From a virus (Duplodnaviria; Heunggongvirae; Uroviricota; Caudoviricetes), in IMG/VR virus record IMGVR_UViG_3300009709_000002, positions 160,001 to 224,000 of that record: a stretch of 64,000 nucleotides of DNA, one strand, 5' to 3'. Below the pieces are notes generated by a model. The model made no database searches. It had not been told where the DNA came from and was given only the letters and a program-made list of their open reading frames with translations. The position numbers and the translations under genes are program-made. Below are positions 1-3,941 of the stretch, one piece after another; position 1 is the first letter of the stretch; every line of letters begins with the position of its first letter.

Positions 1-585
1 GTAAGCGTCGATACCTTCAGTCATCCACGGATAGAAGGCATCTAGCGCTTTCTTCGGTTCTTCCAGCATGATCGTGCGTTGACGGCAGCTACCTTCAGAG
101 AGGTAGTACCAGTAGACCTTGGAAAGCTTGAGGTGAGCGAAAGCTGCGTCGACGAGCTCTGCAAACTTGTTCACGAGCTTCATCGGGCCGAAAACGTCGA
201 TTTGAATGATGCGGTTCTTGCAATCAGTTGGTGCAGCTTCATAGCCAGCAAGCTGGTCATGCGTGCGGATGATCATGATGTTCTGACCACCTTCAACGAT
301 CACATCGGCGTCGAAAGCGTTGGACTGCGTGAACTCGTAGACGAACTGAGATGGCTTGTAAAATCCACCAGTGTTCTTGTTGATGGTTTCTTCAGCGGCT
401 TCAAATGCGATCTTCTCGATTTGCTCAAGCGCATACACGAAAGTTCCGCGGAAGCTGATCTTGATCTGCGTGGTGAAGATGCTATCATTGAGCTGGTCTT
501 TGAACTGAAAGATTTCAAGATAACTTGCGTCAGACTTATTGTACGCGTTGACGTTAAGATTTACACTTGGAACTTGAATAGACAC
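1..585 (-). CDS. Partial gene running off the left edge; possibly the N-terminal part of a phage AAA ATPase
   Basis: Not in the ORF track. GTG at 585 follows an AGAGG RBS and the frame is open to position 1 (MSIQVPSVNL...VYWYYL...DAFYPWMTEGIDAY). The last residues resemble the segment that precedes Walker A in phage AAA proteins, but Walker A itself is outside the window. Confidence 0.6.
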   Translation of the reverse strand, partial: MSIQVPSVNLNVNAYNKSDASYLEIFQFKDQLNDSIFTTQIKISFRGTFVYALEQIEKIAFEAAEETINKNTGGFYKPSQFVYEFTQSNAFDADVIVEGGQNIMIIRTHDQLAGYEAAPTDCKNRIIQIDVFGPMKLVNKFAELVDAAFAHLKLSKVYWYYLSEGSCRQRTIMLEEPKKALDAFYPWMTEGIDAY

Positions 586-651: not shown

Positions 652-1119
652 TTAGGTGTCAAACCAAAATGTCTTACCATCTGTTGTTATTGCACAATCT
701 GGAGAAAAGCGAATCTTTTTCACTTTCTTCATTAGTTCACCAACTTCTTGACCAATTACAGTAAAGCAAAATTGTTCACCGCCTGGTATCCAAACATCTT
801 CCAACAACATTACTTCAGACCGCATCAAGATAGTTTTGACTATCTTATTAACATCTTTTTGTTTTGGCACTGGAAATGCTTGATCATTTTCATCAATATC
901 GGTGTAATATTGACTCCAAAATTTGTCTAAAAGTTCAGATTGAACAATTAAATGTACAAGAAGTTCATTATCTTTGTCTCTAAAGAATACTCTATGGCAA
1001 TTGTTGTCATATCCAGTTTCTTTATCAAGATTCACCATTGATGAAATATCAGGATTCACCCATTTATTCTTGAATCCATTATAGTCGATCATCAAAATTT
1101 CAAATTTATCATCAATCAT
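652..1119 (-). CDS. Hypothetical protein (AT-rich)
   Basis: Track ORF 652..1155. The likely start is ATG 1119, overlapping the stop of the upstream endonuclease gene. No recognisable motif. Confidence 0.6.
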   Translation of the reverse strand: MIDDKFEILMIDYNGFKNKWVNPDISSMVNLDKETGYDNNCHRVFFRDKDNELLVHLIVQSELLDKFWSQYYTDIDENDQAFPVPKQKDVNKIVKTILMRSEVMLLEDVWIPGGEQFCFTVIGQEVGELMKKVKKIRFSPDCAITTDGKTFWFDT

Positions 1120-1720
1120 GTTTTCTCTTCTTACACTTATCACCATGATATGCAATCATAGAATTGTATTGACCTGTTTTTCCACAATGCTCACAAGTGA
1201 AAACCGGTCTATTTGATGCAGCTGTTTTATAGTTCTCGCGAGCTTCATCAGTGCGAACTTTACCAAGATTAGCCTTTCCAGCATTAGATGAATTTTCTGA
1301 GCGCCATTCTTTAGATTTGTTCATCAAAACATTGCTTATATGATCTCTTGTCTCTTTGTCATGCGTTTTACCAAAGAAACCATTCTTTTCACCAAGCGCG
1401 CTTTGTCTTCGTTTTTCTCTAGTTTCTTCAGTCATTGGTCCTCTATAACCACCAATTCCGCCTGGTGCTATATTCCACCCTATCTGGGCTACAGGACGAA
1501 GCTCTTTTTCTTTGTCATACGCATCCATGAAATTTTCAAATTCTTGGAGGATAACAAGGCACGAGAACGTGAGCCGATATTTTCTAATGCCGTGTCCGAC
1601 TTTATAAATGCTTTTTGTATGACTGTCAAACCTGCCTTTGACGTCATTCGTTACACCAACGTAACCGAGCTGTATGTTAGTTGGATCAGTTGGATGTGGG
1701 ATATGATAGAGATAGTACAA
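1112..1720 (-). CDS. GIY-YIG homing endonuclease with NUMOD3-like repeats (Seg-like)
   Basis: N-terminal YLYHI...GYVGVT...R...H; NUMOD3-like MTEETREKRR and GFFGKTHDKETRDHIS; C-terminal CEHC. TTG start with a GGAG RBS. Confidence 0.85.
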   Translation of the reverse strand: MYYLYHIPHPTDPTNIQLGYVGVTNDVKGRFDSHTKSIYKVGHGIRKYRLTFSCLVILQEFENFMDAYDKEKELRPVAQIGWNIAPGGIGGYRGPMTEETREKRRQSALGEKNGFFGKTHDKETRDHISNVLMNKSKEWRSENSSNAGKANLGKVRTDEARENYKTAASNRPVFTCEHCGKTGQYNSMIAYHGDKCKKRKHD

Positions 1721-1790: not shown

Positions 1791-3074
1791 TCATTCGTAA
1801 TCAGTTTTACTATCCTGGAAGGTATATGGCAAATCACGTGCAATTGGATCATTTACTTTCTTTTGCGGCTCAGTCATAGCCGTATAAGTGCGACGAGCGA
1901 GAGCATCACATTCAAATTTTGCATCAGCTGATGTCATTTGGCACGGAGGGCTCTTCTGTGTATACGCAGAGCATCCGCGCAGGTAACCAACGATACCCAT
2001 CTCAGCAGCGACGCGGCAGAAACGAATTGCCGAGATTACCACACCACCCGAGTTAGGGCTATCTTGCACAGACATACGAGCAGTAAGCTCATAACGAGCT
2101 CCACCAAATCCATATGCCACGATATCAAGATTAGCGATCTTGTTATCTGATCCCACATATTGACCACCCGGTTTTTGCAGCACTGTCAGTGACGGACCTG
2201 CGTAAAGCGTCATACCAGCTGTGCCAGCACCACGAACTACGTTTTGACCCTTCAGCACGTTTTCCTTCGATACGTGCTTGCTGTGCAGACGTTCCTTGTT
2301 TGCCATGTTCAGGAAGTCGGTGTTAGCCGTGCGACCTGTACGAATATGCTCTTGACCTTGCGTCGAGCCTGCAGCCATGTTCATCTGAATGTGCTGAGTA
2401 ACCATCAGGCCAGCATCCAGCATCGCACCTTGGAGAACTTCCGACAGACGGCTTGCGCCCCAGATCGAACGCATATCCGAGCCGACGATCGTCAGGCCAG
2501 CATCGATGAATTGCTGTTCGGTTTCCATCGCTTCCTTCGTCGAGATACGAGTCGGGATGCAGTTAACCATGTGGCAGCCTGCTGCTACTGCCGCGTCGAT
2601 GTAGAACTTCGATGCAGTTTCTGACCCAACCGGGCAGTAGTTGATAACAACTTCTGCTTTGATCGACTTCAGAATTTCAACTACTTCATTGAAGGTGAGT
2701 TCTGGTTGCTTGTCATCCACGCGGAAAGAAACATCTTCCGGGAAATCATGCATGTACGGTGCAACACCGTCAAGAACCGGACCCTTGTAAACACGTGCGT
2801 GAGGAGCGATTGCAGCATCGGTGATCTCAGTGACGTGATCCATGGCGCAGTTCGGCGAGGCACGAAGAGCTTCCTTCAGCGGACGGTTCACCTTGCGCTT
2901 ATCGATGTCGAAACCACCAACAAAGACGATATCTTGAGCAGCGTAGCCGCCGATATCTTCATACATCAGACCGACTTTGTCATCCGGATTTTCGATGTAA
3001 TATTGAACGCCTTCTACGAGACTTTTTGCACAGTTACCTACGCCGACGATCGCGACGCGAATTTTGTTAGACAT
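1791..3074 (-). CDS. ino1: Myo-inositol-1-phosphate synthase
   Basis: Rossmann motif VAIVGVGNCAKSLVEG, plus INYCPVGS, VNCIP, NTDFLNM, SKENV and DSPNSGGV, all typical of bacterial MIPS. Confidence 0.93.
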   Translation of the reverse strand: MSNKIRVAIVGVGNCAKSLVEGVQYYIENPDDKVGLMYEDIGGYAAQDIVFVGGFDIDKRKVNRPLKEALRASPNCAMDHVTEITDAAIAPHARVYKGPVLDGVAPYMHDFPEDVSFRVDDKQPELTFNEVVEILKSIKAEVVINYCPVGSETASKFYIDAAVAAGCHMVNCIPTRISTKEAMETEQQFIDAGLTIVGSDMRSIWGASRLSEVLQGAMLDAGLMVTQHIQMNMAAGSTQGQEHIRTGRTANTDFLNMANKERLHSKHVSKENVLKGQNVVRGAGTAGMTLYAGPSLTVLQKPGGQYVGSDNKIANLDIVAYGFGGARYELTARMSVQDSPNSGGVVISAIRFCRVAAEMGIVGYLRGCSAYTQKSPPCQMTSADAKFECDALARRTYTAMTEPQKKVNDPIARDLPYTFQDSKTDYE

Positions 3075-3088
3075 TGTAAGACCTTAAC

Positions 3089-3257
3089 ATTTCAGTTGTT
3101 GACGGGCATTGGTCGATGGTGTTTCACACCAGAGTAGGCCCGGGTTCAAAATGAACCAACTAGAGGAGAGACTTGCTCAAATCAGATTGGTCCGCTATTT
3201 CAGTTGTTAACGCACATTGGCTCGTATAAGACGGTGCTCATCGGAGAGTAGGTGCGG
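3089..3257 (-). ncRNA. Tandem structured cis-regulatory RNA motif (2 copies) in the ino1 leader
   Basis: Copies at 3089-3143 and 3197-3257 share 21/24 and 11/13 nt blocks. The stem differences are compensatory (CGGGC/GCCCG versus CGCAC/GTGCG). Confidence 0.7.
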
Positions 3258-3280
3258 AATGCATTGCATCCATTACCTAA

Positions 3281-3309
3281 ATCTTAACTTCTTTCAAACA
3301 ACCTGTACA
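3281..3309 (-). promoter_or_regulatory. Sigma70-like promoter for the ino1 leader
   Basis: Minus strand TGTACA-N17-TAAGAT preceded by TTAAAA. A perfect late promoter TATAAATA lies upstream at 3348-3355. Confidence 0.65.
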
Positions 3310-3373
3310 TTTTAAAGTGCAAAATTGTTTGATGATTTAGATAGAAGTATTTATAAGAGTCCAGCGTGATGCT

Positions 3374-3586
3374 TCAATTTTCGCGAATCATTCGAAGTGC
3401 TTCAACCTTCGTGAAATCTGGGATCAGGTCTGGCGAGTAAAGCAGCCGCCAGGTTCCGTCAGGTAGCTCATCGAGATGAATGAAGTTCTTCCCCGTCCTC
3501 GGACTTGCCGCTTTTGAGATGTCTAAAACGAGGTTCGTGCCTTCGATAGCTATCGAGCGCTTCGGATCTTGTGATTTCTTTTTCAT
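3374..3586 (-). CDS. Hypothetical protein
   Basis: 70 aa ORF in operon orientation with protein-like composition. Confidence 0.55.
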   Translation of the reverse strand: MKKKSQDPKRSIAIEGTNLVLDISKAASPRTGKNFIHLDELPDGTWRLLYSPDLIPDFTKVEALRMIREN

Positions 3587-3941
3587 GCTCTTCTTTATAA
3601 AAGTCTATGAATGTTTGTGGAACTTCTATGCCACCATTTTCTATGACACGCCTAAGCCTTCCTGCGATCAACCGACGAGCTTCTGAAAGCGTTATGTCAT
3701 CTAGCAGCGCCCACAGCAATGTCCATAAATCAGTTGCAATCATCATCGATATCTGATGCCGAGCTGCTTCTAAATATGGCTTTGGCATGTGAAAATTCTT
3801 CTTACTATCAAGCTTTTCAACCTGAAATGTAATGCCTGGATTACCTGGCAACATCTCAAGTTGAGATTGATAGCGTTCGTCATATGGATTATACAGGCGA
3901 GCTTCCACCTGTATATCCTCTTGATGAATTGGAATGAACAT
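3468..3941 (-). CDS. Hypothetical protein
   Basis: 157 aa; start overlaps the upstream stop (TGATG coupling). Confidence 0.6.
   Translation of the reverse strand: MFIPIHQEDIQVEARLYNPYDERYQSQLEMLPGNPGITFQVEKLDSKKNFHMPKPYLEAARHQISMMIATDLWTLLWALLDDITLSEARRLIAGRLRRVIENGGIEVPQTFIDFYKEEHEKEITRSEALDSYRRHEPRFRHLKSGKSEDGEELHSSR

Follow-up and report, generated by a model that had tools for sequence, protein, structure and literature searches.

A conserved RNA motif in the leaders of phage MIPS-family genes: a candidate class of translational riboswitch-like element

The MIPS-family gene and its leader

The 64,000 nt analysed here (the window) correspond to positions 160001-224000 of an IMG/VR phage record that is 360,227 bp long and carries direct terminal repeats. 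Its minus strand encodes a protein of the myo-inositol-1-phosphate-synthase (MIPS) family, preceded by a leader that contains two copies (A and B) of one motif (Table 1). The protein matches Pfam PF01658 (33.8 bits), PDB 1GR0 (E 5.7e-55) and the five-membered cyclitol-phosphate synthase 6K96 (E 8e-30); because its score against TIGR03450 (210 bits) is under the 638-bit equivalog cut-off, it is assigned to the MIPS family only and to no exact substrate. A gene for a GIY-YIG/NUMOD3 homing endonuclease (1112-1720, minus strand) lies directly downstream of the MIPS gene and separates it from the remaining cluster.

At least six phage lineages, this genome included, encode a 5-hmdU DNA kinase domain (PF18723) at ~3 kb or less from MIPS; of these, this genome, Ralstonia phage RP13 (L443) and a second jumbo phage (G001, L444) have it at a distance of about 3 kb. 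This proximity is indicative of a cluster for thymidine hypermodification in which a cyclitol might be used, and it suggests that the MIPS-family enzyme feeds DNA base modification, which frames the question of a ligand without deciding it. The neighbourhood in Stenotrophomonas phage Moby (L095, MN095772.1 27484-31617), where motif and MIPS are flanked by GTP cyclohydrolase I (folE) and by QueC-like / queuine tRNA-ribosyltransferase-like genes, is, judged from these neighbours, a 7-deazaguanine-type context and not a 5-hmdU kinase context; a search of Moby for PF18723 gave no match.

Table 1. Features of the MIPS leader and its surroundings (window positions unless a locus or alignment is named)
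Feature	Position	Strand	Description
MIPS-family gene	1791-3074	-	427 aa; Pfam PF01658
Start codon	3072-3074	-	ATG of the MIPS-family gene
Ribosome-binding site (RBS)	3081-3086	-	UAAGGU
Motif copy B	3089-3142	-	CGGGC-CUACUCU-(hairpin)-CCAAU-GCCCG-UC-AACAACUGAAAU
Copy B, tail	3089-3100	-	N' = A3091
Copy B, P1 3'	3103-3107	-	followed by linker UC
Copy B, CCAAU loop	3108-3112	-	N = U3108
Copy B, P2 hairpin	3113-3132	-	
Copy B, CUACU loop	3133-3137	-	
Copy B, P1 5'	3138-3142	-	
Spacer between copies	3143-3196	-	long irregular hairpin GGACCAA.../...UUGGUUC
Motif copy A	3197-3256	-	CGCAC-CUACUCU-(24-nt hairpin)-CCAAU-GUGCG-UU-AACAACUGAAAU
Copy A, tail	3197-3208	-	AACAACUGAAAU; N' = A3199
Copy A, P1 3'	3211-3215	-	
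Copy A, CCAAU loop	3216-3220	-	N = U3216
Copy A, P2 hairpin	3221-3246	-	
Copy A, CUACU loop	3247-3251	-	
Copy A, P1 5'	3252-3256	-	
Candidate promoter	3281-3309	-	TGTACA-N17-TAAGAT, sigma-70-like; conserved in L003
Alternative candidate promoter	3348-3355	-	TATAAATA box, T4-type late-promoter consensus; putative function
PF18723 protein, this genome	G000:C1:158535-158978		about 1.0-1.5 kb before window start
PF18723 protein, L004	L004:5942-7204		one or two genes from MIPS
PF18723 protein, L007	L007:4763-5929		one or two genes from MIPS
PF18723 protein, L031	L031:4639-5706		one or two genes from MIPS
Tail:start-codon helix, marine lineages	alignment A7, columns 58-63 with 83-88		e.g. L007:2930-3012

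The repeated unit is a hairpin in which a stem P1 and a variable stem P2 flank an internal loop that is asymmetric (5'-CUACU / 3'-YCAA-N...), and a single-stranded tail follows it; N denotes the base after CAA and N' a base of the tail. The initial annotation, made from the window sequence alone, had described the copies as covarying, with five differences between their conserved blocks, four of which form two compensatory swaps, and the sequence agrees, both swaps falling in the 5-bp P1. It had also placed the tail of copy B directly at the RBS and start codon; this was confirmed, with a gap of 2 nt (GU) between tail and RBS. The upstream unit, copy A, has no RBS of its own. A composite pattern of the motif occurred twice in the window compared to 0 occurrences in 100 shuffles, and those two are the only ones in the entire 360-kb genome. 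With the covariance models R1 and R2, copy A scored 70.6 and 59.1 bits and copy B 75.1 and 61.3 bits, respectively (R2 superseded R1, which rested on 4 sequences and proved too narrow). Both repeated elements upstream of the MIPS-family gene are therefore confirmed as real.

In the minimum-energy fold of the window leader P1 and P2 are formed in both copies. The folding energy of the whole leader is ordinary (z = -0.61), so that the signal lies in covariation and not in stability. The long hairpin predicted for the spacer competes with a hairpin GGUUCA-UUU-UGAACC (3143-3157) adjoining copy B. No intrinsic terminator was detected after copies A and B in the window leader. The sigma-70-like promoter named in the initial annotation agrees with the consensus at only 8 of 12 positions and fell under the threshold of the promoter scan, which did not report it; with the TATAAATA box as an alternative candidate promoter, the leader would be about 200-270 nt long.

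Distribution of the motif and its tandem form

Two sets of loci were sampled, 80 from IMG/VR that encode relatives of the window's MIPS protein and 80 from metagenomes. Where the sequence available ahead of the gene was long enough, a related element, usually a single one, directly preceded the MIPS homolog at 71 of 77 loci in the viral set and at 73 of 77 in the metagenome set, and one of the misses (L006) is a variant with a three-way junction that the counting script overlooked. The occurrence of the motif upstream of homologous genes, on which the initial annotation had staked its proposal, is borne out for about 93% of phage loci and for three isolated phages, RP13, Moby and Caulobacter phage Cr30, in which the motif directly precedes annotated inositol-phosphate synthase genes (likewise, by annotation, in the many relatives of Moby). 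The MIPS proteins of these phages share 61% (RP13), 44% (Moby) and 38% (Cr30) identity with that of the window, and despite this divergence the motif letters are identical across phages of alpha-, beta- and gammaproteobacterial hosts. The ~7% of phage MIPS genes without the motif (L047, L050, L052, L054, L075, L077, L173, L183, L188 and L190 were recorded as motif-free) might serve as natural controls; some motif-free loci have instead a short leader rich in A and T behind a plain promoter of sigma-70-like type.

The association with the gene was also seen in searches that started from the motif. In complete phage genomes model R2 gave strong scores at the MIPS leader only (twice in the genome of the window, once in Moby and once in RP13). 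A type-2 pattern run against IMG/VR without regard to gene content matched at least 120 stretches; all 115 matches analysed among those listed carry P1 and have MIPS immediately downstream. A looser type-1 pattern retrieved 17 genuine MIPS leaders together with chance matches. The sole recurrent match away from MIPS (L384 and 8 others) is located within a 238-aa ORF, on its antisense strand, and was rejected as chance; an initial, strict pattern scan had returned mostly chance matches within genes. The steady association with one coherent gene set that characterises a riboswitch class is thus seen here, with only MIPS-family genes among the matches listed. The motif always has the orientation of the gene and always lies at most 10 nt from the RBS. 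When the closest homologs in 185,579 prokaryote genomes were inspected, the motif was present solely on MAG contigs on which the adjacent genes have matches among phage orthologous groups, and for chromosomal homologs (Spirochaetota, Sediminibacterium, Chitinophaga) no motif was found at the gene, nor elsewhere in the genome among the candidates scored. Within this sample, the motif family is confined to phages or phage-like DNA.

The sequences ahead of the motif differ among lineages. In marine loci (L007, L011, L026, L042, L051, L078 and many others) a conserved TATAACTA box is located 8-14 nt upstream of P1; it may be the late-promoter variant of the marine group, which would place the motif at the extreme 5' end of the transcript. 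At seven loci (L033:1578-1638; likewise L034, L010, L023, L025, L027 and L044) a sequence resembling a type I hammerhead ribozyme lies directly upstream of the motif. That of L033 has the full CUGAUGAG...CGAAAC...GUC core and scored 28.1 bits against RF00163 (gathering score 34; E 2.7e-5 in a narrow search), and the predicted cut would let the MIPS mRNA start ~10 nt ahead of P1.

The tandem arrangement emphasised in the initial annotation is real in the window, but the family normally has a single copy: two units in series were found only in the window, L003 and L366, i.e., in about 3 of roughly 200 leaders. L003 is the closest relative of the window (90% protein identity), and from the TATAAATA box to the RBS the two leaders, including the spacer, are almost 100% identical except for P2 of copy B, which has been rewritten with compensation in L003 (UGGUGU/ACACCA compared to CAGUA/UACUG) between unchanged flanks. 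The upstream gene is strongly diverged between the two, the leader being better conserved than coding sequence. L366 (minus strand, about 2240-2620 of the reverse complement) is a distant phage, with a MIPS protein 44% identical, and in both tandem designs a short hairpin adjoins P1 of the downstream unit. The comparison suggests that tandem units arose at least twice, in the lineage of the window and L003 and independently in L366, and that the tandem form is a rare elaboration that has arisen repeatedly rather than the ground state. Two homologous units kept by selection, the architecture of tandem riboswitches, are evident from the retention in L003 and from L366.

Consensus structure, covariation and the loop-tail pair

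A curated parse of 71 unique sequences revealed a common plan. P1 (4-7 bp) is followed by the 5' loop CUAC(U) and by P2, which opens with a C-G and a U-A pair and is otherwise free in sequence and length; on the 3' side come the loop Y-CAA-N, extended by 0-9 bases, then P1', and a 3-30-nt linker (with an additional hairpin in five lineages) ahead of the tail A-(A/U)CUGA-N'-AU. The Shine-Dalgarno sequence lies 1-7 nt past the tail in all members. CUA, CAA, CUGA and the terminal AU are invariant in 71/71 unique sequences, and the motif has about 15 invariant unpaired letters in all, although at least sixteen distinct P1 sequences, well over 100 distinct motif sequences and >200 instances in diverged phages were recorded. 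The internal loop CUACUCU/CCAAU and the tail had both been proposed to be invariant. For the loop this applies family-wide to CUA(C) and CAA, whereas the UCU after CUAC opens P2; for the tail, A-(A/U)CUGA-N'-AU is kept throughout the family, but N' varies and covaries with the base after CAA. In a three-way-junction variant (L006:2882-2972 and L129:1088-1180), CCAAU and P1' are separated by an extra hairpin of 30-40 nt, with U/C at N:N'.

Covariation was evaluated in two alignments and supports both stems, as the first description of the window had anticipated. In an Infernal alignment (41 hits, fitted to the model) P1 is 95.5% paired, double changes occur at 5/5 pairs, and 0/500 shuffles reach the observed value; sliding of the partner columns lowers pairing to 25-62%. 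In a MAFFT alignment of 22 marine sequences, made independently of structure, P1 and the first three pairs of P2 are 97.9% paired with double changes at 8/9 (0/500 shuffles), and sliding lowers pairing to 26-43%. The G-U pairs in P1 suit the mRNA strand only, as they would be C-A on the opposite strand, and the element accordingly acts in mRNA sense. The 5' leader of this mRNA thus has a conserved structure backed by covariation, as expected of a riboswitch class.

Besides the two stems, the bases N and N' vary in concert. They form A-U in 44, U-A in 17 and G-C in 7 of the 71 unique sequences, with 3 non-Watson-Crick combinations (68/71 matched), and their mutual information is third in rank, among the P1 pairs; pattern-scan loci, whose patterns fix both letters, were excluded from these statistics. 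Exceptions are C/A in L005, A/A in L135 and U/C in L006, L129 and the downstream unit of L366 (CAAU with a GACAU tail). On the MIPS protein tree the state of the pair changed about 12 times, G-C having arisen two or three times, and none of the independent contrasts (8, 3 and 6 per state on all branches) runs in the opposite direction; a strict sign test of N:N' has little power, since only 1-2 contrasts per state rest on strongly supported branches, and could not reach significance. The case for a tail that docks on the internal loop via N:N' is, by these sequence comparisons, good but not conclusive.

In marine lineages the tail UGA(U/C)AU moreover matches the region of the start codon, AUGUC(A/G), in exact complementarity (a 6-bp helix by RNAalifold, -4 to -6 kcal/mol), which places a second constraint on N' there. 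We considered this helix as a universal OFF state and rejected it: it is absent from the lineages with N' = A, the window's included, and is thus not the general mechanism. For the marine lineages a simple switch is conceivable, in which the tail would lie on the start codon in the OFF state and on the aptamer in the ON state. An anti-Shine-Dalgarno role of the P2 loop throughout the family was likewise rejected, as complementarity of at least 4 nt was seen in 30/69 and was not above that of composition-preserving shuffles; in some lineages stable GAAA or UACG tetraloops replace the P2 loop. The search of the family for a conserved anti-Shine-Dalgarno pairing found none, and no clear alternative OFF/ON pairing is conserved family-wide.

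Possible function and relation to known systems

We propose, with a probability of roughly 60%, that the motif represents a new class of translational riboswitch-like leader RNA specific to phage MIPS-family genes. The tail would fold back on the internal loop, with N pairing to N', and form a compact pocket, the occupancy of which, most likely by a small molecule, would alter the access of ribosomes to the adjacent RBS and start codon; such an effect of docking is suggested by the position of the tail, which ends beside the RBS in every member that precedes the MIPS gene. In the window, two units in series would sharpen or combine the response. A more specific version, which we entertain tentatively and at less than even odds, is that of a phage-only riboswitch class that senses a metabolite linked to MIPS (an inositol/cyclitol phosphate, glucose-6-phosphate or NAD(H)) and doses a cyclitol for DNA hypermodification, the connection to hypermodification being drawn because in several lineages, that of the window among them, genes for 5-hmdU DNA kinases are found about 3 kb or less from MIPS.

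The initial annotation had left the partner open, proposing an aptamer pair for a ligand or a protein under selection on both structure and loop. The conservation of structure and loop is upheld, and it favours a riboswitch over a protein operator without deciding between them. Phages commonly use translational operators, e.g., those of T4 gene 32, gene 43 and RegA, tandem sites are common for protein operators, and the phage motif adjoins the RBS; a phage protein might cover the RBS and repress translation, the simplest candidate being the MIPS enzyme itself (autoregulation), and the strict company that the motif keeps with the MIPS gene across unrelated phages is what would be expected if the gene product were the partner. 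We nevertheless regard such an operator as unlikely, since about 15 unpaired letters are invariant although MIPS has diverged to 38-44% identity, and identical loop letters in phages of alpha-, beta- and gammaproteobacterial and marine hosts are better explained by an unchanging small ligand than by a co-evolving protein. To our knowledge, no RNA-binding activity has been described for MIPS-family enzymes, and a long-range covarying pair across a variable-length linker is seen more typically in aptamers that fold on their own.

Still less likely, in our estimation, is a constitutive structural role with no sensing, e.g., as a stabiliser of the 5' end, a translation enhancer or standby site, or a module for mRNA processing or folding. 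The predicted position of the motif at the extreme 5' end of the mRNA in many loci (from the TATAACTA box of the marine group), the putative ribozyme cleavage just before P1 in seven loci, and the lack of a clear alternative OFF/ON pairing conserved in the family are consistent with this explanation, but invariant loop letters, a conserved distal tail and a covarying loop-tail pair would all be superfluous in a simple protective hairpin, the restriction of such a hairpin to one gene per genome would be unexpected, and the tandem duplication is hard to account for in a passive element. If only the window were considered, with two copies and two compensatory changes, chance or a repeat acting at the level of DNA (a transcription-factor operator, a recombination site or the remnant of a duplication) might suffice; this is effectively refuted by the >200 instances in diverged phages that retain pairing amid sequence change, by G-U pairs that fit the sense strand only, and by the fixed orientation and the proximity to the RBS. 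We rank the riboswitch above both the protein operator and the passive element because an unchanging ligand fits the identical letters.

Riboswitches have seldom been reported in phages (PMC9004378). If the metabolite-sensing interpretation is true, the motif would be the first riboswitch for that type of ligand and the first dedicated to phage DNA modification; the phage riboswitches known to us are copies of bacterial classes. The identity of the ligand could reveal what the MIPS-family enzyme, often adjoining DNA-hypermodification genes, does for phages. As three cultured phages (Moby, Cr30 and RP13) carry the motif, ligand screens and reporter assays are feasible immediately, and a compact putative aptamer of ~50 nt whose linker is modular would also be of use as a part in synthetic biology.

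The novelty suggested by the initial annotation was borne out in covariance scans of the window copies and their relatives against Rfam 15 at permissive E-values: on window 2900-3600, ten related loci, L007 2890-3010 and the Moby leader, no family came near its gathering score on the motif. On the motif of a relative, preQ1-II alone (RF01054) gave any score: 17.8 bits (E 0.71) when 121 nt of L007 were searched, the gathering score being 47. This hit was rejected, and the family gave none on the window copies. In the literature we found no RNA motif tied to inositol-phosphate synthase/MIPS and no matching phage riboswitch, and a paper that presents 224 candidate motifs does not mention inositol.

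Among systems familiar to us, the small pseudoknot translational riboswitches (preQ1-I, preQ1-II, SAM-II and the NAD+-II/pnuC motif) come closest in layout: they too measure about 50 nt, lie right before the RBS and have a conserved A-rich 3' tail, which in the phage motif seemingly folds back on the hairpin so that a ligand would govern ribosome access. Unlike in these, the proposed docking site of the phage motif is an internal and not an apical loop, its tail is set off by a linker of 3-30 nt able to hold an extra hairpin, and its invariant CUAC / CAA / CUGA-N-AU letters are matched by no curated model. The serial arrangement of two homologous units in one leader (window, L003 and L366) recalls the tandem aptamers of the glycine and NAD+-I (nadA motif) riboswitches, and the CAACAAC of the window's tail is reminiscent of the bulge sequence of nadA, but no Rfam match was obtained at E <= 10 and the tandem form is exceptional in the phage family. 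With the ZTP riboswitch (pfl motif) the phage motif shares a helical sub-domain and a short conserved 3' element that are separated by a very variable linker and joined by a long-range pair, although it is much smaller, has one covarying long-range pair detected and shows no similarity in sequence or covariance model. The T4 translational operators are likewise phage leader elements that control translation at the RBS; they are, however, lineage-specific protein sites with little conserved tertiary structure, whereas letters and fold of the phage motif are conserved across T4-like, jumbo and other phages, and it is present once per genome. Taken together with these comparisons, the motif would be a new, apparently undescribed class within a known kind, that of structured cis-regulatory leaders and riboswitch candidates.
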